NCBI GenBank assembly: GCA_043799405.1
Contig: JAZDNT010000003.1
Location: 335,461 to 399,460, forward strand
Length of the DNA stretch: 64,000 bases
Source: Candidatus Kerfeldbacteria bacterium
Lineage (GTDB): Bacteria; Patescibacteriota; Patescibacteriia; SBBC01
Direction: 5' to 3'
The notes beneath the pieces are model-generated. The model was not told where the DNA came from. It saw only the letters and a list, made by a program, of their open reading frames with translations, and ran no database searches. The position numbers and the translations under genes are program-made. Below are positions 5,863 through 17,797 of this stretch, piece after piece (position 1 is the stretch's first letter; each line of letters starts with the position of its first letter).

Positions 5863-7671
5863 GTGTTCACTCGAATGTTGCATTCGTTACGTACAACCCT
5901 CAACCGGATTTTTCGGCGGAGGGCGTCGGTCGTTCAGGCACCGGATACCCATGCTGACGCTGAACGGCGGATGGTCTACACGCTCGCGAAGTCACGGCTG
6001 CCCACGTTCCGGCAGCTCCGCTACCTCCCGACGGTCGCCTCCTCTACAGAGCGACTTCTGCTGCTTACGCTCAGCGGCTTTGTAATCGTCTCACTGCTCT
6101 TCCTTGGCGCACGGGCGTACGCCCGGAACGTTACCCTTCTTCCCCGCAGCGGAGGCGGGATCGTTGAGGCGATCGTCGGAACGCCGCAGTACTTAAACCC
6201 GATACTCGTCAGCACGAACGATGTCGACCGCGACCTCGTTGCGTTCTTGTATGCCGGCCTCTTCAAGCGAAACGGAGCGCAAAAAATCGAGCCTGACCTT
6301 GCTGAATCATATGAGGTCAGCACTGACAACAAGGTGTACACCGTTCACCTCAGAAAGGGTCTTGCGTGGTCGGACGGAACACCGTTGACATCTGACGATG
6401 TTCTGCTGACGTTCGAACTGATACAAGATTCCCTCTACAAGAGCCCGCTTCGGGGTCAGTTCAAAAACATGAAGGTCGAGCGCCTCGATGAAACCAGCGT
6501 ACGCTTCACGCTCACACAACCGACATCAGCCTTTTTCTCGTCGCTGACGGTCGGCATACTGCCCGCACACATCTGGGGCGACGTGCCGCCACCGAGCTTT
6601 GCGCTCATCGAGTACAACATTAAACCTATCGGTGCCGGACCGTATCAGTTCGAATCGTTGAAGCGCGACGCGAGCACCGGCGCGATCAAAGAGTACCACC
6701 TTGTGAGAAACAAACAGTATCACGGCAGTTGTCCCTACCTCAACGAGTACACGTTCAAGATATTCATGGACACGGAGTCGGCACTGCAGGCCCTCCGTTC
6801 AAAGAAGGTCGATAGCATAAGCGTCGTAACCGCGGAGCAGCGGGCTGAAGCGAAGCAGGTACGGCTCATTGATCTTCAGATTCCGCAGTACACCGCGCTC
6901 TTCATCAATACGAAACGGCCAGTACTAAAAACGATCGAGGTTCGAAACGCGCTCGCTACGGCAGTGGACAGAAACGACCTCGTCTCATCCATACTCCGTG
7001 GCTCCGCGCTCGTGGTCGACGGCCCGATCCCGCCAAACATGCCGGGATACGCAGGCCCGCTACAGCCAGGATTCAACGTCGATGAGGCGAACCGTATTCT
7101 CGAGAATGCGGGCTGGAAACGAACAGACAGCGGAAACGTGCGAAAGAAAGGGAACGACGAGCTCGCATTCTCCCTCAGCGTCTCCGATGTTCCGGAAGAC
7201 CTAGTAATCGCTGAAAAGCTTAAGGCGGCATGGGAAAAAGTCGGAGCGAAGGTCGAGATAAAATCGTTCGATACGTCCCGCATCGCAAAAGAGATCATTA
7301 AACCCCGCAGCTACGATGTGTTCCTCTACGGCGAGATTCTCTCGGTGGACGCCGACCTCTACCCGTTCTGGCACTCAAGTCAGGAACGGGATCCGGGACT
7401 GAACCTGACGAATTTCTACAACAAGGACGCGGACAAGCTGCTCGAGGAACTGAGGACAGCGGTCGATCCTGCCGTCATCGCCGAAAAACGCATCGCTTTC
7501 CAAAAGCTCCTCGCAAAAGACCTGCCGGCAATCTTCCTCTACAGCCCTCTGTATACCTACGGACTCTCGAAGCGGGTAAAGGGTTTCGACGTCGCCTTCG
7601 TTACGAACCCCTCGGACCGGTTCGCAGATATTTCAAAGTGGTACGTAAAGACAAAGATTGCATTCAAGTAG
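5863..7671 (+). CDS. ABC transporter substrate-binding protein, family 5 (peptide/nickel type), membrane-anchored
   Basis: 602 aa with an N-terminal TM anchor and family-5 SBP-like architecture (LNPILVSTNDVDRDL, IKPIGAGPYQF). Confidence 0.7.
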   Translation: MFTRMLHSLRTTLNRIFRRRASVVQAPDTHADAERRMVYTLAKSRLPTFRQLRYLPTVASSTERLLLLTLSGFVIVSLLFLGARAYARNVTLLPRSGGGIVEAIVGTPQYLNPILVSTNDVDRDLVAFLYAGLFKRNGAQKIEPDLAESYEVSTDNKVYTVHLRKGLAWSDGTPLTSDDVLLTFELIQDSLYKSPLRGQFKNMKVERLDETSVRFTLTQPTSAFFSSLTVGILPAHIWGDVPPPSFALIEYNIKPIGAGPYQFESLKRDASTGAIKEYHLVRNKQYHGSCPYLNEYTFKIFMDTESALQALRSKKVDSISVVTAEQRAEAKQVRLIDLQIPQYTALFINTKRPVLKTIEVRNALATAVDRNDLVSSILRGSALVVDGPIPPNMPGYAGPLQPGFNVDEANRILENAGWKRTDSGNVRKKGNDELAFSLSVSDVPEDLVIAEKLKAAWEKVGAKVEIKSFDTSRIAKEIIKPRSYDVFLYGEILSVDADLYPFWHSSQERDPGLNLTNFYNKDADKLLEELRTAVDPAVIAEKRIAFQKLLAKDLPAIFLYSPLYTYGLSKRVKGFDVAFVTNPSDRFADISKWYVKTKIAFK

Positions 7672-7758
7672 GACGGCTGACATTTGACCTTTGACGTGTG
7701 ACACATGACTTGTAACAGTTGTAGGAGATAGAAAGTCAAACATCAAATGTTCTCACAA

Positions 7759-7844
7759 GGGCGAGTGGCGAAATGGCATACGCACTGGCTTCAGGAGCCA
7801 GCGATCGCAAGATCATGGAGGTTCGACTCCTCTCTCGCCCACCA
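7759..7844 (+). tRNA. tRNA-Leu(CAG), type II, CCA encoded
   Basis: Acceptor GGGCGAG/CTCGCCC, anticodon arm CTGGC-TTCAGGA-GCCAG, long variable arm, T-loop TTCGACT, terminal ACCA. Very similar to bacterial tRNA-Leu(CAG). Confidence 0.9.
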
Positions 7845-8702
7845 GAGCGAAGAAGCCGTTGCTTCCGTGAACAGGGAGAACGGCTTGTTCGCTGTGTACA
7901 GCGCTTTTCTCCCGGTGACCCGATAGTTCGACCCGACCACCTCCACGATCTGCCGTTGCTGAACCCGCGTGCCGTCACGGAAGACCTGCGGGGCGTGCAG
8001 CGAGAAGGCGAGGGCCTGGTCCACGCGCTCTAGCAGCGCCTCCGGCGACTCACCGGGTCGGTCGAGCCGTAGCTGCAGCTGCGCGCGGCGGTCCTGAAGC
8101 GCCGTCTTGCGACGCTCGTAGGTCGCGTCGTCGATCGAACCTCGGAGCCGCAGGGTGAGAAGCGTCTCTTCTTCGGCAGCTGCCTGCAGGACGGCATTCT
8201 CCAGCGATTCCCTGGCAGTGCGAAGTTGGCCGACCTCGCCCTCGAGCGAGTGTTTGAGGTTGTCGCGGATCCACCCGGCCGCTTCGGGTGTGAGGCACAT
8301 CCGCTTTAAGTCCTGGGCCAGCTGCTCACGGAGGGTCTCCTCAGGCAACGCCGGCTCGGAGCAGGTCTCGCCGATACGCCTACGGTGACAGCGGTAGTAG
8401 ACGTAGCGCTTGCCGCTCGGCTTGACGTGCGCTTCGGCGACTAACGCCCGGCCGCACGAGGCGCAGTGAAGAAGCCCCGAGAAGGTGAAGTCGTGGTGCA
8501 CCGGCCGGGCTCGACTTGGCCGACCGAGCAACTCCTGCGCGCGTTCGAACTCCTCGGGCGCGACCATCGGCACGTGAGCGCCCTTGTAGGCCTCGCCGCT
8601 GACGTCGGCGTCCTCCTCGAGGAGATGCGCAACGATGGCAGTTGGGTCCGCCAGTGGCGCCGCGCCGCCATCGAGTACGCCAAGTAGCACCTGGTTGTCC
8701 AC
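7791..8702 (-). pseudogene. Large serine recombinase, C-terminal fragment only (zinc beta-ribbon plus coiled coil); catalytic resolvase domain missing
   Basis: FSGLLHCASCGRALVAEAH...KRYVYYRCHRR zinc-ribbon and a long coiled-coil tail. No N-terminal catalytic Ser domain in any upstream frame. The last ~18 codons read through the complement of tRNA-Leu. Confidence 0.7.
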
Positions 8703-8852
8703 TTCCAGGGAGCACGGAGCGCGCCACGCTCGGCTTGCGTCAACGGGACAAGTACTGACTGCACATGTTCGACGCTTTGGCGCTCGCGGTGGCAGCGAGT
8801 CAAGCCGTTCCGCGGGACGCTCGGGAACCCAAAGCCGCTCAGGGATAATAGA

Positions 8853-8881
8853 AGCCCCCGACTCTTCGCAGAGCGGGGGCT
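8853..8881 (-). terminator. Hairpin terminator downstream of the FG-GAP gene
   Basis: AGCCCCC...GGGGGCT is a 7-bp GC stem, followed on the minus strand by TCTATTAT. Confidence 0.45.
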
Positions 8882-8905
8882 TGTTTCCAGAGCGAGGACC
8901 TGTCG

Positions 8906-10959
8906 TCAGTCGAGGACTACGACCTTCACGGTGGCCGTGTGAAGGGTGGACCGAAACGCGATGAAGTACACGCCGCGTGCCACCCGTCCTCCACGGGGGC
9001 TGTTTCGGTTCCAGGAAAGAACGTGCTCACCGACGCCGTACTGCCCTTCGGCGAACGTAGCCACCTCGCGCCCGCTCACGTCGAAGATCGAGATGCTGAC
9101 CCGATCAGCGACCGGCAGGGTGAAGCTGATGTTGACGCTCGAGATCGCCGGATTCGGTGCCGCCCACAGCCTGAATGAAGAGTTGGTGATTGGCGGTGGT
9201 CCATCATCCGGAGGGGCGGGCCGCGCCGAGGAGCCGCCGCCCCAGCCTCCGAGCCAGCCGCTGCTGGAAGGAGAGAATCCCGAGCCGGAACTGGTGGCCT
9301 CGAACCATTGCCCATAGGCTGGCTCATACAGCACGACGTCGCACTTGCCGTCGCCAGTGAAGTCTCCGGAGAGCGCCCGGTATGCGGTTGCATTCGCCCC
9401 CCATGGTCCCATCCAAGCAGACGATGCCGGGGTGAAGGCGCTGCCAGTCGAGGTGGCGACGAACCATCCGCCAGTTGCCATCTCGTACAGGCAGACGTCG
9501 TAGAGCCCGTCGCCGGAAAAGTCGCCGGTCAGGTTCTGGTAGGCGGTAGCGTTGGCTCCCCAGCTTCCGAGCCACCCACTCCCTGAAGGCGAAAAGCTCG
9601 ACCCAGTGCTGCTGGCTTCGAACCACTGACCGTACGCTGGCTCGTACAACCCGACGTCCCAGGCTGCTCCGCTGTTGAACTTGCCAGTGATAGCCCGGTA
9701 CGCAGTGGCATTGGCTCCCCAGTTGGCAAGCCAGCCTTGCGACGTGGGCGTAAACGCTGAACCGTCCGACGTCGCCACGAACCACTGTCCGTAGGCAGGT
9801 TCATACAAACCCACATCGCACTTTCCGTCTCCGTTGAAATCACCGGAGATTGCCTTGTACGCGGTGGCGTTTGCGCCCCAGCCACCAAGCCACGCCGTTC
9901 CGGCAGGCACGAACGCTGAACCGTTCGACGTCGCCACAAACCACCCGCCGGTCGCGGCTTCGTACAAGCATACGTCGCACTTGCCGTCCCCGTTGAAGTC
10001 GCCGGTCAGAGGTTGGTAGGCGGTGAGGTTTGCTCCCCAGCTCCCGAGCCATCCGCTTCCCGAAGGCGCGAAACTTGAACCCGAACTGGTTGCTTCAAAC
10101 CATTGCCCGTTGGCTGGCTCGTACAGCACGACGTCGCACTTGCCGTCGCCAGTGAAGTCTCCGGCGAGCGGCACATAGCGGTCCACGGCGCTGATTTGGA
10201 ATGCTGCTCCCTGCCAGTCTTCCAGGAGTCCTCCGGTTGTGTGGTACGGACGGAAGTACACCCACGTCGTCCCTGACGCGGCATCTGAAGGAACCTTACC
10301 TGTGAAGGTGAATGTGGCCGTTCCTTCGGGCGCAACGCTTGTGAACCCGACGGCGTGTGGTTCTGGATGTAGCTGATCGCGTCAACGAAGCCGTATGTGG
10401 GAAGCGTACCGATGTCGTTGTCCCAGTTCGCTGGAATGGGAGCCCGCCCAAGGTGGCTTGGCAAGCTAATGCTAGGATGGACCCCAAAGTGAAGATGGTT
10501 ACCATCTGACCAATGCCCGATTGTGCCGAACTGAACTCCAGCGGTAACCGTACTATTGACTTGAACAGAAGTTCTTACGTGTCCGTAAAAAGCGAGAAAC
10601 TGTGTGTCGTCAGAGAGGGTGTGCTTCACGACAACGCATACATTGCAATAGCCTTGGTCGTTAGGGCAGCACTGAGTGGAGCCGCCATTGTCACAAGAGT
10701 TGCTCCATCCACCGTCGCTGATGTAGTACACTACTCCATCAGCAATCGCATAGACAGGATCGCCATAGTCCGCAGCGATATCCTTACCGAGGTGGTAGTA
10801 GTTGGGGAAGTACGCAGGCGGCACAGCGAGCCAACCCGCATAGTTGCCAAGGCTACTGGTTCCAGTTGGGTAGTAGAAACCTGTTGAGGTTTGAGCCAAC
10901 CCGAAAGCGTTCGAGCAGACAAGCATGAACAACAACACGAACAACAGCACCCTTGCCAT
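8906..10959 (-). pseudogene. Secreted M23 peptidase - 7x FG-GAP-like repeat - T9SS-type C-terminal domain protein, split by one frameshift
   Basis: Track ORF 10006..10959 has a signal peptide and M23 motifs (YHLGKDIAADYGDPVYAIADG, HLHFGVHP). Track ORF 8906..10261 has seven GDFxGDGKCDV...WF repeats and a tail resembling the T9SS type A sorting or FlgD-Ig domain. The second frame stays open upstream to 10371, so a single 1-nt shift joins them. Confidence 0.7.
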
Positions 10960-11047
10960 TCGTTCCTCCTGCTGTTAGCGAAGTCCGCTGGGTTTCAAAC
11001 CGCGTCGTTCTATATTGTCAGCGAGCCCTTGTCGTAGGCTATGCAAG

Positions 11048-11710
11048 CTATTGTATGTGTATTGAGCTTACGATTTGTTCGAAAACCTGAGTCAAGGTAG
11101 TCTTGCCAACTGTCGCACCAGCCGTCTGCTCCAATGCGTCCCCAACATAGCCGATAGTCACGGACCTTTTGTTGTCAGCCAAGGTAAAGATGTAGAATGG
11201 GCTATGGCCAGTGGTTGAATACGCCTTATATCCTGAATAGCCATTAATTGTTACCCGTGTCTTGTTTGCCGAAGGTAGTGCAGCAACGTAGGCATCGGCA
11301 GTTTGCTGAACGGTGCCAACCGAAACGGGATAATCTACCGAACCTTCAAGGTAGAAGGTGGTGTCTTGTGGAGTAAGCCGCGGTGCTGCTCCCACCTCCT
11401 GAACGAGAGTCCAGGTTGAGGGATAGCGAAGTGAGAAGCCATCGCCAGTGTACTCATGGCTAGTAGAAGTGTTGGCAGTGCTAGTGTCATTGGTTGAGGA
11501 AGTGTCGATAGTTGTGTGGTTAGTGAGTATGGGGGAGGATGTATTCGCATTGTTCGTGTTGTGAGATGTGGTGGTGGGGGGAGTCGGGTGGGGGGTCCGG
11601 CCAAACGCGTACCAAGCGGCGAGGCCGGCGATGACGATGATAACTACGGCGATGACGAGGAGCGGAGCAGAAGAGCGGGGACGGAGTTGGGAAGATGGAG
11701 CAGTAGGCAT
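11048..11710 (-). CDS. Membrane-anchored hypothetical protein with a Thr/Ser/Asn-rich linker
   Basis: 220 aa with a TM (LLVIAVVIIVIAGLAAWYAF), a low-complexity T/S/N linker and a globular C-terminal domain. Lower GC than its neighbours. Confidence 0.55.
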   Translation of the reverse strand: MPTAPSSQLRPRSSAPLLVIAVVIIVIAGLAAWYAFGRTPHPTPPTTTSHNTNNANTSSPILTNHTTIDTSSTNDTSTANTSTSHEYTGDGFSLRYPSTWTLVQEVGAAPRLTPQDTTFYLEGSVDYPVSVGTVQQTADAYVAALPSANKTRVTINGYSGYKAYSTTGHSPFYIFTLADNKRSVTIGYVGDALEQTAGATVGKTTLTQVFEQIVSSIHIQ

Positions 11711-12198
11711 GGTAAGGAGAGGATCAATAATAGATGTAGCTACCTACACCATGGCACGTGCACGGGCGGCGTCAAGAGGGTGTTGAGAGAGAGAGTGTGG
11801 GGCGTGCGGAGCCGGCCATTGGGGCGACGCGCGAGCGGGGTGGCTGGTATTGCACAAGGGGGCGCGCTGCGTGCGCGTGGACCCGCCTACAGTCAGGAGG
11901 CTTTGAGGGCTACGCTTGGTGGTGTTGTCGCACCTCATGCCTCGCGGTGATCCCCGCCCCCTGACAAGGAGGCCTTCCCATGAAGGCCGATCAGCACATC
12001 CGCACGGTGGAAACCCACGACCGCGCCGGGAACGTCGACCACCAGCCGCCTGCCACGTGTGGTTCTCAGCTGCCTGCGTGTGATCCAGTTACTTGACGAC
12101 GACAGCAACACGGTGATCCTCGACACGGCCCGGCAGCAGCTGCGCGGGCTGCAGGGAGCATCGGACGATGCTAGTCCGACTGGCCCGGCTGGGCTACA

Positions 12199-13392
12199 AT
12201 GCAGACATCCATGACTAAACAAGAAGCATACGTCGAGCCAGCGATTCTACGGTGGGCACGAGAGAAGTCCTCGCTGCCTTCTTCTTTGGTCGCCAAGCGT
12301 GTCGGCGTGCCTCCCGAGCGTCTCGACGAGTGGGAGCAGGGCAAGAGCAGACCAACGGTCCGCCAGACGCGCGTCCTCGCCCGCATCTATGGTCACCTCG
12401 CGCTGGCTGTGTTCTATCTACCAGAGCCGCCACGTGACTTCACTCCTCTGAAGGACTTCCGTCGGTTGGCAACCGCAACACCGCAATCGATCTCGCCGGA
12501 GCTGCTCTTTGAGTATCGTTCGGCTCAGGACCGGAGGGAAATCGCGCTAAGCCTGTTTGAAGAGCTCAGAGAAGAGCCACCAACCTTCACTCTGACTGCG
12601 CACGTCGGCGAGAACGTCGCTAGCGTCGCTGCCAGAATCCGGAGTTCCCTCGAGGTCTCGTACGAAACCCAGAAGCGCTGGCACACCAACAACGAAGCCT
12701 TCAACGCCTGGCGTGCTTCACTAGAAGGGGCGGGAGTACTCGTCTTTCAAGCAGTCGGCATCGCTGTAAGGGAGATGCGCGGGCTATCGATTAGCGATCG
12801 CCCGCTTCCTGCTGTGGTGGTCAACCGCAAGGACGCTTATGCCGGGCGGATCTTCAGCGCGCTGCATGAAGTTGCGCACATCATGTTGCGTGGGGGTGGG
12901 GTGTGCGACATGCGTGACGATCGCCGATTGCCCCCAGATGAACTCGCAATCGAGATGTTCTGCAACGCTGTGGCAGGAGAGACCATCGTCCCAAGCGAGA
13001 CGCTAAGCCACGAGCGGATTGTTGCCGCGCACTCCAATCTGGAGTGGACCGACGATGAACTGGCTCGGCTTGCCCAGATCTACTCCACCAGCAAGGAGGT
13101 TGTGCTCCGACGATTGCTGTCCATGCGCCGCACGACGGATGCATTCTACAGACGCAAGCGGGAACAGTTCATCAGGGAATTGGAGGATCAGGAGCGATCT
13201 CGCGGCAAGAAGACGAAGCCCGGCTTCCTGACTCCGGACGTTGAGGTTGTGAGCCAGACGGGGAAGGGTTTCGTCAGGCTGACCTTGGAGGCGTTTCGCC
13301 AAGGACGCATCACGGCAAGCACACTCTCCGACTACTTGGGCGTGCGACTGAAGCACATCCCGTCGATTGAGGAAATGGTCCAAACCCGATGA
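12199..13392 (+). CDS. XRE-family HTH fused to an ImmA/IrrE-type zinc metallopeptidase
   Basis: N-terminal HTH (LVAKRVGVPPERLDEWEQGKSRPTVRQTRVLARIY) and an HExxH motif (LHEVAHIML). The real start may be the ATG at 12211, just after a TACAAT box at 12194-12199. Confidence 0.75.
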   Translation: MQTSMTKQEAYVEPAILRWAREKSSLPSSLVAKRVGVPPERLDEWEQGKSRPTVRQTRVLARIYGHLALAVFYLPEPPRDFTPLKDFRRLATATPQSISPELLFEYRSAQDRREIALSLFEELREEPPTFTLTAHVGENVASVAARIRSSLEVSYETQKRWHTNNEAFNAWRASLEGAGVLVFQAVGIAVREMRGLSISDRPLPAVVVNRKDAYAGRIFSALHEVAHIMLRGGGVCDMRDDRRLPPDELAIEMFCNAVAGETIVPSETLSHERIVAAHSNLEWTDDELARLAQIYSTSKEVVLRRLLSMRRTTDAFYRRKREQFIRELEDQERSRGKKTKPGFLTPDVEVVSQTGKGFVRLTLEAFRQGRITASTLSDYLGVRLKHIPSIEEMVQTR

Positions 13393-13886
13393 GCGAAGTA
13401 GCCCCCACTCCGAAATACAGCATGGACTCCAGCGCGCTGATCTACGCGTGGGGCTATGCCTACCCGCTCGAGGCATTCGGAGGGTTCTGGGAGAACCTTG
13501 AGGGGCTCGGTCGTGAAGGGCGACTCTTGGTCTCGGAAGAGGTGCTCGAGGAAGTCCAGCGCAAGGACGACGGGCTACACAAGTGGTTGAAACAGAGAGA
13601 TAGCTTAGTTGCGAGCCATACAGGTGAAGTGCAGCTTGCGGTCAAGGAGATCCTGAAGTCGCATCGGTTGTTGCTGAATGCGGGAACCGGCAAGTCTGGC
13701 GGGGATCCGTTTGTCGTAGCCGTTGCGCGCGTTCACGGTTGTTGCGTGGTGTCGGAGGAACAAGTAAGCGATTCCCCTAAGCGAATAAAGATTCCCAACG
13801 TATGCCGCGACTACCGCGTGAAGTGTATCCCGCTAGTGAGGATGATTCTGGCCGAGGGGTGGCGCTTCGGTGGTCAGGGGACGTGA
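13389..13886 (+). CDS. DUF4411-like (PIN-like nuclease fold) protein, coupled partner of the ImmA gene
   Basis: ATGA start/stop overlap with the upstream gene. YSMDSSALI N-terminus and GGDPFVVAVARVHGCCVVSEE motif, as I recall for DUF4411. Confidence 0.6.
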   Translation: MSEVAPTPKYSMDSSALIYAWGYAYPLEAFGGFWENLEGLGREGRLLVSEEVLEEVQRKDDGLHKWLKQRDSLVASHTGEVQLAVKEILKSHRLLLNAGTGKSGGDPFVVAVARVHGCCVVSEEQVSDSPKRIKIPNVCRDYRVKCIPLVRMILAEGWRFGGQGT

Positions 13887-15617
13887 TTAACCCGCATCAA
13901 TCTTGTCCGAAGCCGAGCGAGTAGAGCCGGCCAACCAGCCGAGAACTTCAGGCACCGGATCGGGAATTGCGAGGCTTGCATCAGAGGCCATGAGCCGGGC
14001 TCGAGTAGGCTTCCCCATGTTGGGACGCTTCTGACACTCAGCTTGGTAGGTCGTCTCGCCAATCGTCCGTCTGAGATGATCTTCAAAGTTGCGAGATAGT
14101 CGCCAGACCCGCACGGTGCCGTCCGGTCGCTCGAGGCGCTGAAGCTCTGCGTTGAACGTCTTCTCTTCGTCGCGTTTGCCTTCAAAGTCCGACGAGTCTG
14201 AGTCGAACACAATCCCCACAGGGATTCCGAACGACGACGCGATCGCTCCGAACTCAGGCAAATTGCGTTTGCCGCCAACCTCCACGATTGTCGCGCCTTC
14301 GCGATCGAGATCGAGTCCGAGACGCTGTGCGTACTCCGGAAAGGCCAGCTTCTCAGTATCGCCCTCGACGAAGAGCACCTTGGTAGCGAAGAACAACTCA
14401 TTCCGCTCAGGGTCCAGCTCCTTCAAGAGCTTCTCTCTGCGCCTCGAATCGGTCGGCAGGGCAGAAGAGGTGACAGTCGTACCGTTCTTTCCGTTTCGGA
14501 AGAGCACGACCTCGTGATAGTCGGGGACGGCAACGAAGTGAGGCGAATGCGTGGCGTAGATGACCTGGTTGGTTTGGCCAATCTCACGGAGGGTACGGTA
14601 GAGCGACCGCTGCATCTGTGGGTGGAGGAACATCTCCGGTTCTTCGATCAGGATGATCGCGCCTTTCCTTCGGTGCTGCTCAAAGGCCCTGAGGATTGCG
14701 AGAACGATGGCGTTCTGGATACCTTCGCCAAGTTCGGTAGCACTGATCGTGAACTCGCCCTCACGCACCCGAAGGTCGAGAGACTTGTAGAAGTCCATCG
14801 ACTCAAACGGGGAAAAGAAGAAATCAAGCCTTTCCGAGTCTGTCGCAGGATCAAACCCCAACTGTCGAAGTGCATTGTCCTTGATGGTCTTCTCGAGCAA
14901 CTCAAGATCGGTCGTGCGGAGCACGTCGAGAACGTCCTTCATCAGCGATTGAAACCGTTCAGCCCTGGAGGTCTCAATCGGTATGCCGTCAGGACCGGGC
15001 ACGGCAATCGTGCTCTTGGGATCATGTAGAGCACGGTCGATGTCCTCGAGCAGTGGCCGCAGGAGGGAGAAGCGCGCTCCCGGAAGGTGTTCCTTGAGAC
15101 TCCGATTAGTCCCGATGTACACAAGAGGAACTGCATCCCTGACCTCGCTCGGAATGCCGACGACCGGCTCGTACTGATATGCGACGCCCTTCGTCGGCTT
15201 CTTCCCGACGATCAGCGGCTTTGCGCCCTTTGCGTCGCGGCATTCTTGCTCCAATCGCCGTTCGCCCTTCTGGGCACCAATCTTGTAGCGGGTGTACTTG
15301 AACGAGACGCTGTGGATCGCGGCTGGAGGAGTCCCGTAGATCTTCCCGTAGGACACGGGGGAGTCGAACGTAAGCACGATCTCGATGTCGCGGGCGGAAT
15401 CACGCAGGTACACGTCGTCTTCCGAGAACGAGGACGCACTGACCCAATCACGACCCATGACACGTTGAATCGCGTGCAGAAGGTTGCTCTTGCCAGAGTT
15501 GTTTGGGCCGACGAGCGCACAGACCTGTGGCAAGTCGAGATCGACGTTTCGGAGGGAACGGAATCCCTTGATGGTGACGTGCGAGAGCTTCATGCCCATA
15601 GCACACCACCAAATCAC
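13887..15617 (-). CDS. OLD-family ATP-dependent nuclease (ABC-type ATPase plus Toprim), stand-alone
   Basis: Walker A GPNNSGKS, Walker B region ILIEEPEMFLHP, Toprim VLFVEGDTEKLAF and FDSDS. Its stop abuts the DUF4411 stop (convergent). The start is probably at MKLSHVTIKGF near 15593. Confidence 0.8.
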   Translation of the reverse strand: MIWWCAMGMKLSHVTIKGFRSLRNVDLDLPQVCALVGPNNSGKSNLLHAIQRVMGRDWVSASSFSEDDVYLRDSARDIEIVLTFDSPVSYGKIYGTPPAAIHSVSFKYTRYKIGAQKGERRLEQECRDAKGAKPLIVGKKPTKGVAYQYEPVVGIPSEVRDAVPLVYIGTNRSLKEHLPGARFSLLRPLLEDIDRALHDPKSTIAVPGPDGIPIETSRAERFQSLMKDVLDVLRTTDLELLEKTIKDNALRQLGFDPATDSERLDFFFSPFESMDFYKSLDLRVREGEFTISATELGEGIQNAIVLAILRAFEQHRRKGAIILIEEPEMFLHPQMQRSLYRTLREIGQTNQVIYATHSPHFVAVPDYHEVVLFRNGKNGTTVTSSALPTDSRRREKLLKELDPERNELFFATKVLFVEGDTEKLAFPEYAQRLGLDLDREGATIVEVGGKRNLPEFGAIASSFGIPVGIVFDSDSSDFEGKRDEEKTFNAELQRLERPDGTVRVWRLSRNFEDHLRRTIGETTYQAECQKRPNMGKPTRARLMASDASLAIPDPVPEVLGWLAGSTRSASDKIDAG

Positions 15618-15790
15618 CCTCGTGTCTAGACCGAAGAGTCACCTCGGGGTTCAGGACGGAAGGGCACAGCACGAGCTCACGTGCGTGCCTCCACCCCCTA
15701 GGCAGCCGCCTTTGTCTTTGTCATACTGCGTTTGCGTCTCCGGAAACGACGTAAATCCAGCAGGAAGACATCGCGGGTATTGAGCAGCCA

Positions 15791-15821
15791 AGTTCGAACG
15801 TCCTCCGCCACGGTCCACCAA
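15791..15821 (+). repeat. Degenerate tRNA 3'-end-like fragment at the right edge of the GC-rich island
   Basis: AGTTCGAACGTCCTCCGCCACGGTCCACCAA. The last 12 nt (ACGGTCCACCAA) are identical to the 3' end of tRNA-Ala (15967-15978). Confidence 0.55.
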
Positions 15822-15901
15822 CAATTCCCTACTTAATATACTGGTAGGATATAGAAATAATATATTGGCCCTTAGCTTATCTTGTAGACCCGCCTGTTCA
15901 T

Positions 15902-15977
15902 GGGCCGTTAGCTCAGCTGGTAGAGCGCTTCCATGGCATGGAAGAGGTCAGGAGTTCAAATCTCCTACGGTCCACCA
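15902..15977 (+). tRNA. tRNA-Ala(GGC), CCA encoded
   Basis: Acceptor GGGCCGT/ACGGTCC with the G3-U70 Ala identity pair, anticodon arm CTTCC-ATGGCAT-GGAAG, T-loop TTCAAAT. Confidence 0.9.
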
Positions 15978-16039
15978 ATGGCTTTTGCAGGCGGGGCGTT
16001 TCCATGCCTGTCCGCCAAAGCGTAGCGTCGGCGGAGCAC

Positions 16040-16077
16040 GGAAGAGGTGACCGGTTTGAGTCCGGTAGGGTCCACCA
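16040..16077 (+). repeat. Diverged copy of the 3' half of tRNA-Ala (anticodon-stem 3' strand to CCA)
   Basis: GGAAGAGGTGACCGGTTTGAGTCCGGTAGGGTCCACCA compared with the tRNA's GGAAGAGGTCAGGAGTTCAAATCTCCTACGGTCCACCA. The ends are conserved and the T-arm is replaced by a different but still paired stem. Confidence 0.7.
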
Positions 16078-16099: not shown

Positions 16100-16570
16100 A
16101 TGACAGTGGATGATCTTAAAAGGTTCGTACGCAGTATTGTGGCCGAGGCGCGCCTATTAAACGCAGCACATACTTACGAACATGATGCGCCTGTCAATTA
16201 TGCATGCATTTTCACACAGAATTCAGCTATGTACGAGGAAATCGTAAAAGTTGCCCATCAACTCGGTCAAGTAGCTGAGAATACCTCGATGGGACCTGTT
16301 TTTCATATAGCTCCATTGTCTACTGACGCCGGCACGCTCCGACTTCTTAAAGTCAGGCGCCCAGATCTAAAGCGTTTGGAACGAGGTGATGCGGATTTTA
16401 CGGTATTTGACTATGATTCCTTCAAGAAGAAATGTCTCGGTAAATTTGGCTTCAGCCTTATCAAGCGCGAAAAAATGGAGATGATCGAACTAATCGACCC
16501 TTCGTTCAATGTTCTTGCCTACTACTCGCATCCTACACTCGCTGAAGTTCTCAAGCTGAAGAACGGGTAA
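16100..16570 (+). CDS. Hypothetical protein
   Basis: 156-aa ORF with backbone-like composition. I recognise no motif. Confidence 0.5.
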   Translation: MTVDDLKRFVRSIVAEARLLNAAHTYEHDAPVNYACIFTQNSAMYEEIVKVAHQLGQVAENTSMGPVFHIAPLSTDAGTLRLLKVRRPDLKRLERGDADFTVFDYDSFKKKCLGKFGFSLIKREKMEMIELIDPSFNVLAYYSHPTLAEVLKLKNG

Positions 16571-16891: not shown

Positions 16892-17797
16892 ATGACCTGG
16901 TACTGGTATGCAATTTTCTCTGCAGTCCTGATCTCACTTGTCGGGCTTTTCCAGAAAAAAACACTTCAAAACGAACATTCGCTGCAATACGTCACGATAT
17001 TCAGAACGACGAATTTCCTGTTGTTCCTGCTGATTTTCGCTCCGACGCTCACGATAGGTACAACGAGCACGCAGTTCTTCTTCCTCGGGCTCACCGGTCT
17101 CATCGGCGCGACTGGCCAGCTGTTCGTAGCGCGTTCGCTTCGCGCGCTCGATATTTCGACGGTCATGCCGATCCTGGCGCTCGATCCGGCGCTTGTCGCC
17201 CTGCTCGCATTTGGCGTGCTTGGGGAAAAGTTAGCCGGCTTCAATATCGTTGGGATCGCATTCGTTCTCATCGGCGCATTCGTACTTGAATCTCACCGTA
17301 AGGAGGGCGACGGCCGATGGCGCGACATACTGCACTCTCCGAAACTGCTCGTCCGGCCATTCAGGCGCATGGCACAGGAACGCGGGGGCCGATCGATCAT
17401 CATCGCCCTTTTCGCCTACGCCGTGAGCGGGGTCATCGACCGCTTCCTCTTGAAACAGCTGAACGTTACGACCTACCTCTTCTACGTGTACCTCTTCGGC
17501 ACAACGCTCTTTCTTCTCCTCCTCCTCGCAACGAAACAGAAGGTCCAGCTGTTCCAGCAGGGAAACAGGCTCTTCTTCCCGACGATCATCATTGCGGCGG
17601 TCATGAGCCTCTTCGCGAACATCAGTCAGGCGAAAGCGACGAGCCTCGCCGCCGTTGGGCTCGTCATCGCCGTCAAGCGCGCATCGGTGCTCATCGACAT
17701 CATTCTCGGCGGCCGGCTGTTCCACGAACACCACATTGCGCAGAAGCTCCTAGCATCAGCGATCATCCTGCTCGGGCTGTACCTTATCGTCATATGA
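16892..17797 (+). CDS. EamA/DMT-family transporter
   Basis: 301 aa with about 10 predicted TM helices in two similar halves, which is the EamA-like arrangement. Confidence 0.65.
   Translation: MTWYWYAIFSAVLISLVGLFQKKTLQNEHSLQYVTIFRTTNFLLFLLIFAPTLTIGTTSTQFFFLGLTGLIGATGQLFVARSLRALDISTVMPILALDPALVALLAFGVLGEKLAGFNIVGIAFVLIGAFVLESHRKEGDGRWRDILHSPKLLVRPFRRMAQERGGRSIIIALFAYAVSGVIDRFLLKQLNVTTYLFYVYLFGTTLFLLLLLATKQKVQLFQQGNRLFFPTIIIAAVMSLFANISQAKATSLAAVGLVIAVKRASVLIDIILGGRLFHEHHIAQKLLASAIILLGLYLIVI

Follow-up and report, generated by a model that had tools for sequence, protein, structure and literature searches.

In the 64,000-nucleotide (nt) stretch of contig C2 analysed here (the window), an island of about 8 kb lies between the genes for tRNA-Leu(CAG) and tRNA-Ala(GGC) and opens with the 3' part of a large serine recombinase (LSR) gene. 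The genome under study (G000; 1.03 Mb in four contigs, C1 to C4, 88% complete) carries a second island, on contig C4, with an intact copy of the same type of recombinase. The host, with a genome size of about 1.1 Mb (relatives of the same class range from 0.6 to 1.6 Mb), appears to be a Kerfeldbacteria-like member of the Candidate Phyla Radiation (CPR)/Patescibacteria. The closest named homologues of the solute-binding protein (SBP) gene at positions 5863-7671, upstream of tRNA-Leu, are found in metagenome-assembled genomes (MAGs) of Candidatus Kerfeldbacteria, at 58-63% identity. Relatives used for comparison include two genomes of the same genus (G001 and G002) and three of the same family (G003, G004 and G005).

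Recombinase fragment and attachment junctions

An earlier interpretation of this DNA, made from its letters alone (the sequence-only reading), had described a compositionally foreign island with a decayed serine recombinase between the two tRNA genes. Both tRNAs were confirmed by ARAGORN. The features that bear on the ends of the island are the following.

7759-7844, plus strand: tRNA-Leu(CAG), intact (ARAGORN).
7839-7898, no strand assigned: 60-nt exact repeat (CCACCA plus the first 54 nt of the element) in common with the C4 island, found by alignment.
7845-8601, minus strand: 3' part of the LSR gene, 252 codons (zinc ribbon, coiled-coil region, C-terminal region), corresponding to C4:132229-132985; nominal open reading frame (ORF) 7791-8702.
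15776-15820, minus strand: P arm of the element attP, which forms the element half of the present attR; the C4 island has an 87% identical sequence at its far end.
15821-15901, plus strand: host spacer, located between tRNA-Ala(CGC) and tRNA-Ala(GGC) in relatives; host half of attR at the tRNA-Ala(CGC) site.
15902-15977, plus strand: tRNA-Ala(GGC) (ARAGORN); not the integration target of the window island.

The first ORF of the island had been taken for the C-terminal part of an LSR lacking its catalytic domain, and the domain search bears this out. Zn_ribbon_recom (PF13408) is the only Pfam family recognized in ORF 7791-8702 (minus strand; residues 74-132, E = 1e-11, 45.5 bits); neither Resolvase (PF00239) nor Recombinase (PF07508) was matched in this ORF, and the Resolvase domain was found on C4 only when the whole genome was searched. 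At the DNA level, positions 7817-8601 (785 nt) are 92.6% identical to C4:133013-132229, a segment that corresponds to the 3' part, from residue 239 onward, of an intact 534-amino acid (aa) LSR (C4:131513-133117) with Resolvase, Recombinase and zinc-ribbon domains. The homology breaks off abruptly at 8601. From its 93% identity to the intact copy in that region, the window LSR probably includes the coiled-coil insertion. At the other end, the last 17 codons of the ORF (about 18 in the earlier count) are read from the complement of tRNA-Leu.

The LSR segment is the longest repeat in the whole genome, and the differences between its two copies are unevenly distributed: only two mismatches fall within 7845-7958, as against approximately 8.7% further in. 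The proteins share 235 of 252 residues, with a ratio of nonsynonymous to synonymous substitution rates (dN/dS) of 0.19. Such a value implies that the copies diverged under selection, while functional, and that the truncation is comparatively recent.

All three zinc-ribbon LSR genes of G000 lie at tRNA 3' ends. The third encodes a 452-aa protein (C4:40112-41470, minus strand) and is separated by 128 nt from two tRNA-Arg(CCG) genes in tandem; it adjoins the edge of a patch of low GC content (0.44-0.49) in the region C4:39796-44000.

The 54 nt that follow the CCA of tRNA-Leu(CAG) in the window are identical to those that follow the CCA of tRNA-Ala(CGC) on C4. The left and right junctions of the window island share only the six bases CCACCA (7839-7844). 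The crossover point is placed in this word because no other bases are common to both junctions. The 3' half of tRNA-Leu is identical to that of tRNA-Leu(CAG) in G005, so the tRNA itself is unchanged. By these alignments, the left end of the island is an attL at tRNA-Leu, made of the tRNA arm and the P' arm of the element. A second T-loop-like word considered in the P' arm was dropped; dyad symmetry was not above chance.

The right edge had been viewed as a degenerate tRNA 3' end terminating in the same word as tRNA-Ala. While the terminal word is indeed there, the rest of this interpretation has to be replaced. Positions 15776-15822 are 87% identical to C4:90427-90381, at the far end of the C4 island, and the resemblance to a tRNA is closer to tRNA-Ala(CGC) than to tRNA-Ala(GGC): the T-loop word (7 nt) and the 3'-terminal 16 nt of tRNA-Ala(CGC) both occur in the segment, with five additional bases between them. 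In the LSR frame of the minus strand, the segment opens a 40-aa tail (to 15698) that starts with WWTVAEDVRTW; the equivalent segment of the C4 island gives a 39-aa tail starting with WWTIAEDVRTW. The edge is thus the P arm of the element's attP, coding for the original C-terminal tail of the recombinase, and not a decayed tRNA. Two LSRs from other organisms were compared. One, from an Eisenbacteria MAG (54% identical), runs to its C-terminus without interruption and shows EDVRTW in the collinear position; the other, from a Gammaproteobacteria MAG (56% identical), enters the complement of tRNA-Leu(GAG) at the same codon. The collinear tails, together with entry into a tRNA at the same codon, imply that attP lies inside the LSR gene. 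On these comparisons, integration would exchange the last 40 or so LSR codons for codons read from the complement of the tRNA.

Beyond the P arm, the window continues with the spacer that precedes tRNA-Ala(GGC). Past the right end of the C4 island, 26 of the next 27 nt agree with the 27 nt found directly after tRNA-Leu(CAG) in G002. Junctions of the B-P' and P-B' form are therefore present, with element arms shared by the insertions and host arms that match the empty sites of G001 and G002. By the match of the arms, the window island extends from the attL of the tRNA-Leu site to the attR of the tRNA-Ala(CGC) site, and the C4 island is the reciprocal product.

Ancestral loci and a proposed exchange between two islands

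Examination of related genomes showed that the two tRNA genes flanking the island belong to separate loci. Of 11 SBP loci taken from relatives, 10 have tRNA-Leu(CAG) next after the SBP gene, and the remaining one is cut off by a contig edge. Directly after tRNA-Leu(CAG), genomes G001, G003, G004 and G005 have a gene, here called X, whose orthologue in G000 is C4:88026-89786 (71-85% identity). These are four of the five relatives examined downstream of the tRNA; in the fifth, G002, the contig stops only about 1.1 kb past it. In G003, synteny past gene X runs on to C4 at 76 kb. The second locus reads, in G001 and G002, Y - tRNA-Arg(CCT) - tRNA-Ala(CGC) - tRNA-Ala(GGC) - EamA gene (window position 16892), with gaps of 98 and 124 nt, respectively, between the two tRNA-Ala genes. 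Gene Y and the genes upstream of it map to C4:133.8-146 kb, and the downstream genes to 16.9-20.9 kb of the window. In G000, tRNA-Ala(CGC) and tRNA-Arg(CCT) are at C4:132986-133177, and the interval from there to gene X is taken up by a 43-kb region with a GC content of 0.57-0.69. Thus, the adjacencies of the relatives, tRNA-Leu - X and tRNA-Ala(CGC) - tRNA-Ala(GGC), are replaced in G000 by tRNA-Leu - island - tRNA-Ala(GGC) on C2 and tRNA-Ala(CGC) - island - X on C4.

The sequence-only reading had proposed a comparison with sister genomes in which tRNA-Leu and tRNA-Ala(GGC) are adjacent. No such arrangement occurs in any relative examined; sister genomes without the island do exist, with gene X directly after tRNA-Leu or with the CGC and GGC tRNA-Ala genes 98 and 124 nt apart. 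These findings bear directly on the picture drawn by that reading, that of a single 8-kb island inserted between neighbouring tRNAs, with a decayed tRNA 3' end as its right direct repeat. That both tRNAs flank the island, and that the final 12 bases of its right edge are those of tRNA-Ala(GGC), would agree with this account. Against it stand the lack of adjacency of the two tRNAs in the relatives, the presence on C4 of the conserved neighbour of each one, the mere six bases shared by the left and right junctions, and the homology of the right edge, which encodes an LSR tail, to the far end of the C4 island beside the flank of tRNA-Leu. We regard a single insertion of this sort as very improbable.

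The partner island (C4:90-133 kb) is a high-GC, defence-rich integrative element of 43 kb, possibly mobilizable. Besides the intact LSR it encodes a TIR-domain protein, three tandem tyrosine recombinases, a type I-like restriction-modification pair, a coupling protein of the TrwB/TraG type, a 791-aa serine recombinase-XRE fusion, a Pycsar-type effector domain and an SMC-like ATPase. In addition to the LSR segment and the P arm, two short stretches of the window recur in it.

8715-8799, no strand assigned: 85-nt intergenic repeat, 82% and 77% identical to C4:127883-127967 and C4:126317-126386, respectively.
11955-11988, plus strand: 34-nt stretch (ribosome-binding site and start codon), 97% identical to the start of a 230-aa gene of the C4 island.

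The 34-nt stretch is a remnant linking both islands; no protein-level remnant of the 230-aa gene was detected in the window. When the two islands were compared by tblastx, the LSR segment, the P arm and the 85-nt repeat were all that emerged; numerous short linked matches were judged to be noise. The exchange is assigned to the 0.76-kb LSR segment since, apart from the 85-nt repeat and the 34-nt remnant, this is the sole DNA shared between the ends.

The interpretation that we favour, with a probability of roughly 0.55, is that two related islands underwent a reciprocal half-exchange amounting to a real inversion between replichores. A small decayed element, its LSR cut to the last 252 codons, would have entered at tRNA-Ala(CGC), just upstream of tRNA-Ala(GGC), and a 43-kb element, which has an intact LSR and carries genes for defence and transfer, at tRNA-Leu(CAG). 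The insertion sites lie in opposite orientation on the chromosome. A crossover within the shared 0.76-kb LSR segment, most likely at its tRNA-proximal end, where 60 nt are identical and 114 nt nearly so, would then have inverted the chromosome between the elements. As a result, tRNA-Leu(CAG) would have become joined to the small element and tRNA-Ala(GGC) on C2, and tRNA-Ala(CGC) to the large element and the old neighbour of tRNA-Leu on C4. The two ancestral adjacencies, the junctions at base level, the shared LSR segment, the truncation and the frameshift are seen in the sequences themselves; the order of these events, homologous recombination as their agent and the reality of the exchange as opposed to an artefact are what we infer from the arrangement. 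Inversions between prophages or other repeated elements situated on opposite replichores are known to occur in chromosomes. The case considered here resembles them in that two related integrated elements, inverted relative to each other, would have traded parts reciprocally, and in the preserved polarity of GC skew; it differs in that the substrate is short and 7% diverged and in that the exchange is deduced from assembled sequence.

Several observations weigh against an inversion or do not decide between it and misassembly. The longest repeat of the assembly, the easiest place for an assembler to swap paths, is also where the exchange falls. As a substrate for homologous recombination, the shared segment is poor, albeit usable: its copies are 92.6% identical, and exact identity extends over no more than 60 nt. 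The sign of the GC skew does not change among the four flanks, which fits an inversion between opposite replichores around the origin or terminus and fits a path switch by the assembler equally well; tried as a test between inversion and misassembly, it does not discriminate. Scanning metagenome contigs for the exact pattern of the tRNA-Leu/element junction gave no match, nor did a scan for the first 35 nt of the element arm in metagenome contigs and in viral contigs. The reconstituted attP has little dyad symmetry (11 of 30 positions at best, a score equalled by 1565 of 2000 shuffles). Finally, the original pairing of elements and tRNAs is not readable from sequence alone.

Misassembly would involve the same elements and junctions, with the assembler switching paths in the 60-nt exact repeat that follows both tRNAs. 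The true order would then be the 43-kb island between tRNA-Leu(CAG) and X, and the 8-kb remnant between tRNA-Ala(CGC) and tRNA-Ala(GGC). Correcting the order in this manner yields two canonical single-site islands and restores both adjacencies seen in the relatives; the putative switch point has the 60-nt exact core of the longest repeat of the genome, and the GC skew is compatible. The contig ends are also suggestive. C1 and C2 have a 22-nt inverted overlap near their ends, and the end of C4 and the start of C3 have 10 nt in common; such overlaps hint at a graph-based assembly, from short reads in the case of the C1/C2 overlap, and at possible joins. On the other side, an exact core of 60 nt within a 92.6% identical repeat is shorter than ordinary reads or read pairs and is normally resolved correctly, both contigs run for hundreds of kb on each side with even skew, and the relatives are distant (64-66% identity in the flanking SBP protein), leaving ample time for real rearrangement. 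The assembly artefact therefore appears to us a less probable explanation, if one to be taken seriously. An actual inversion is favoured because ordinary reads exceed the length of the exact core and the distance to the relatives allows for many rearrangements. Under either the inversion or an assembly swap, tRNA-Ala(CGC) is the historical site of the 8-kb remnant, to which only the tRNA-Leu side is foreign. The window island is no longer self-mobile.

The tRNA-Ala(GGC) gene next to the island has a structure of its own. The gene at 15902-15977 is nested between apparent displaced 5' and 3' pieces of an older tRNA-Ala(GGC), and a short pair of inverted words brackets it (the pieces and inverted words are at 15867-15888, 15889-15896, 15988-15995 and 16040-16077). 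The displaced 3' piece is the same as the working 3' end in G002. The nested pattern recurs in G001, at tRNA-Ala(GGC), and in G002, at tRNA-Ala(CGC), with a different inverted pair. A small element carrying a tRNA, or other integrases, may have left this scar.

Composition and cargo of the island

Base composition was evaluated against all 2-kb windows of the genome (mean GC content 0.544, standard deviation 0.039). The jump in GC content reported immediately after the CCA of tRNA-Leu is real: in 500-nt windows, the value rises from 0.54 at 7501-8000 to 0.65-0.67 at 7751-9000. It then declines to 0.50-0.55 at about 10250-11750, varies between 0.56 and 0.65 up to 15750 and drops to 0.41-0.50 beyond that point. 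The successive parts of the island compare with the rest of the genome as follows.

7845-10000: GC content 0.647; 1.6% of genome 2-kb windows equal or higher.
10000-12000: GC content 0.559; 30% equal or higher.
12000-14000: GC content 0.598; 6% equal or higher.
13800-15800: GC content 0.58; 12% equal or higher.

Tetranucleotide profiles give a similar picture. Windows of 3 kb lying wholly or mostly in the island (7541-15540) rank between the 87.5th and 94.5th percentiles of distance, and those wholly outside it between the 4th and 69th; for the two windows that lie across the left edge, the percentiles are the 54th and the 84th. The island is thus compositionally odd, and strongly so only in its first 2.4 kb or so. 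Describing all 8 kb as foreign in composition, as had been done, overstates the case, the remainder having GC values of 0.56-0.60 that are matched or exceeded by 6-30% of the genome windows. The strongest compositional outlier of G000 lies outside the window, at C2:88000-94000 (GC content 0.34-0.42). Just downstream of tRNA-Ala(GGC), at 16100-16570, a low-GC patch (0.41-0.47) contains a 156-aa ORF with no family match and no match among ORFs of at least 100 aa in the G001 and G002 loci.

The genes carried by the island are listed below.

8906-10381, minus strand: M23-FG-GAP-CTD gene, downstream frame; FG-GAP repeats and a type A/FlgD-Ig-like tail of the type IX secretion system (T9SS) kind (ORF 8906-10261, stop-to-stop 10381).
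10345-10959, minus strand: M23-FG-GAP-CTD gene, upstream frame; signal peptide and Peptidase_M23 (ORF 10006-10959).
11048-11710, minus strand: membrane-anchored protein with a Ser/Thr/Asn-rich linker, no family assignment; host-like GC content of about 0.50.
12199-13392, plus strand: fusion of an XRE helix-turn-helix with Peptidase_M78 (ImmA/IrrE type) (Pfam; weak PADLOC matches to RmrA and CapP).
13389-13886, plus strand: DUF4411 (E = 7e-35); its start overlaps the XRE-M78 stop by 4 nt.
13887-15617, minus strand: OLD-family ATPase-TOPRIM nuclease (AAA_15, E = 3.1e-34; AAA_21, E = 4.8e-23; OLD-like_TOPRIM, E = 5e-20).

The secreted M23-FG-GAP protein of the sequence-only reading is present as regards its domains and signal peptide, but not as an intact protein. 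The signal peptide and M23 domain are in one frame and the FG-GAP repeats and tail in another, the two ORFs overlapping by 255 nt. The best homologues of the FG-GAP part are 738-792 aa long and combine M23 (or CHAP), FG-GAP and a tail of this type in a single chain that spans both frames. For P0004 and P0006, the alignment to the window lies in frame -1 over 10905-10477 and in frame -3 beginning at 10342, and P0002 matches from 10369, with its residues 274-755 at 43% identity. The change of frame can be located at approximately 10345-10380, where no long homopolymer occurs, and some 110-130 aa from the middle region of the homologues have no counterpart in the window gene. From these alignments the gene appears to be disrupted, barring an assembly indel at the frame change. 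The peptidase domain is well recognized (PF01551, E = 9.3e-13). M23 enzymes bind their metal through HxxxD and HxH words, and both are visible in the translation.

The C-terminal tail (Por_Secre_tail/FlgD_ig in Pfam, within 8906-10261) scores 33.6 bits against TIGR04183 (cut-off 23) and, against PF18962 (cut-off 27), 26.6 bits as a protein and 29.7 bits in a six-frame search. Its recognition as a T9SS-type domain is therefore confirmed. The use made of it as an argument for horizontal acquisition or for a chimera is weak. A T9SS-type tail is not by itself a mark of foreign DNA, because the Pfam domain occurs in 40 of 121 sampled genomes of the host class (over cut-off in 32; up to five matches per genome) and in a second G000 protein, of 1009 aa. 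No SprA_N match was obtained in any of the 121 class genomes, G000 included, a search in which the control genomes went unmatched too, so that it had no positive control. T9SS-type domains are frequent in this CPR class, which is thought to have no outer membrane. Their presence in the host class is proof neither of type IX secretion nor of a foreign origin.

The claim that the island is itself a mosaic holds: the gene at 11048-11710 has, in addition to its host-like GC content, a 55% identical homologue (E = 2.5e-59) in G005, of the same family. The XRE-ImmA/DUF4411 pair and the OLD nuclease of the earlier description were likewise recovered with Pfam. Since the start of DUF4411 overlaps the stop of the XRE-M78 gene by 4 nt, the pair is likely to form one operon. 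As a functional guess, it could be a toxin-antitoxin-like pair. With PADLOC, the nuclease matches GajA (E = 1.5e-52) and Old (E = 8.6e-52). It shares the ABC-type ATPase plus TOPRIM architecture of P2 Old/class 1 OLD nucleases and of Gabija GajA; unlike Gabija, it has no gene for a GajB-type, UvrD-like helicase alongside. Its neighbours are DUF4411 and the end of the island, and no helicase domain was found in any island ORF. The lack of a GajB-type helicase next to it means that the nuclease is not Gabija as defined.

Part of the cargo evidence points outside the host lineage. This includes the OLD nuclease, whose best homologue is 84% identical and whose best named one, at 76%, is from an Eisenbacteria MAG; the relatives of the hydrolase, which among named organisms are in Zixibacteria; and the GC content far above that of the host. 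The same data could suggest a chimera, in which high-GC DNA of another organism (for example, Eisenbacteria-like) was joined to a CPR contig during binning or assembly. A GC content of 0.65 against a genome mean of 0.54 would fit, as would the named relatives just mentioned and the 54% identical LSR of an Eisenbacteria MAG. A mixture of this kind does not explain why both ends of the island are base-exact att junctions with a host tRNA and a host spacer, why a gene of the host family lies within it, or why the element type occurs three times in G000, always at tRNA 3' ends. Moreover, 23 of 41 genomes of host kin have a match to the LSR at E ≤ 1e-10 (best identity, 57%). A chimera of two organisms, which had been put forward as an alternative to horizontal acquisition, is accordingly most unlikely; with both junctions exact att sites, only an intragenomic swap between related islands is possible. 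Altogether, these data support the view of the window island as a horizontally mobile island with a truncated LSR and mosaic content.

A recombinase family at tRNA and tmRNA 3' ends

Full-length relatives of the LSR (28-56% identity) were gathered from 16 loci in Saccharibacteria, Peribacteria and other CPR, one Gammaproteobacteria and one Bdellovibrionales. A convergent tRNA or transfer-messenger RNA (tmRNA) gene is present in 12 of the 16, as well as in four of five loci from host kin (16 of 21 in all). In those 12, the recombinase match either overlaps the tRNA or tmRNA or stops at most 122 nt from its 3' end. Of the remaining four loci, three end 144-211 nt past the recombinase match. The family is at home in CPR genomes. 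Most of the CPR loci L049-L058 have a T-loop-like word, GGTTCTAAC or GGTTCGAAC, within the coding end of the LSR, about 60-70 nt downstream of the 3' end of the tRNA or tmRNA. We propose, from the alignments, that members of this family would have their attP inside the 3' end of the recombinase gene and use the 3' end (CCA) of a tRNA or tmRNA gene as attB.

The closest described case is that of the ssrA-specific islands of Dehalococcoides, in which the serine integrase DsiB acts at the tmRNA gene (McMurdie et al. 2011, PMC3146451). There, as in G000, an LSR of about 540 aa is encoded on the reverse strand directly at attL, by the 3' end of the target, the repeat of the target is embedded in the integrase gene, and the islands are mosaic, mobilizable and prone to decay. 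The systems differ in their targets (tRNA-Leu-CAG, Ala-CGC and Arg-CCG here, with tmRNA in some relatives only), in the position of the crossover (at the CCA end, against the T-loop in Dehalococcoides), in the length of the direct repeat (6 bp against 20 bp) and in the host, which is a CPR bacterium in the present case; no small recombinase resembling DsiA was seen beside the window LSR fragment.

The order of domains in the C4 copy (Resolvase, Recombinase, zinc ribbon, coiled coil) is that of the A118/LI, Bxb1 and phiC31 integrases, and the identity at the junctions is likewise short (Rutherford et al. 2013, PMC3783163). The same paper describes, for the integrase of the Listeria A118 family, a 5-bp shift of the zinc-ribbon motif between attP and attB. 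[quoted passage not shown] Differences from these integrases are that attP is located here in the integrase coding end, so that the last 40 or so codons are exchanged, and that the targets are tRNA 3' ends and not protein genes (PMC3783163).

A third comparison is with the tRNA islands of tyrosine integrases catalogued by Islander (Hudson et al. 2015, PMC4383910). Here too the island abuts an intact tRNA 3' end and has a tRNA-like stretch at its far end; in contrast to those islands, this stretch does not represent a displaced copy of the target. The junctions share 6 bp and the far end is element DNA resembling another tRNA, which departs from the Islander signature. No Phage_integrase domain was found by Pfam in the ORFs of the window island. 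The 2015 tool paper assumed that serine integrases do not use tRNA genes (PMC4383910). A keyword search of the open-access literature, which did not fully cover recent island-mapping papers, found no report of serine recombinases targeting tRNA 3' ends in CPR.

Tentatively, and with less confidence than we attach to the inversion itself, the observations can be drawn together into a broader proposal. The LSR would belong to a widespread clade, common in CPR and present in other phyla, that takes the 3' ends of tRNA and tmRNA genes (from T-loop to CCA) as its target and keeps attP in its own coding end, the swap of tails serving as a possible switch between the integrated and free states. In G000, two elements of this clade, with defence genes whose closest named relatives are in Eisenbacteria, would have driven an inversion between replichores.

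These results have some practical consequences. One assembly junction needs checking at the level of reads before the contigs are used for synteny. A tRNA-like stretch at the end of an island can be an attP arm and part of an integrase gene, and not a displaced piece of a tRNA. Tools that seek only tyrosine integrases when looking for tRNA islands may miss LSR islands such as those described here. As for the biology of the group, serine-recombinase elements targeting tRNA and tmRNA 3' ends seem to be common in CPR genomes. If the proposal is true, the replacement of the last 40 or so residues of the recombinase (those with EDVRTW) by residues read from the tRNA complement could act as a built-in switch between the integrated and free forms of the element.

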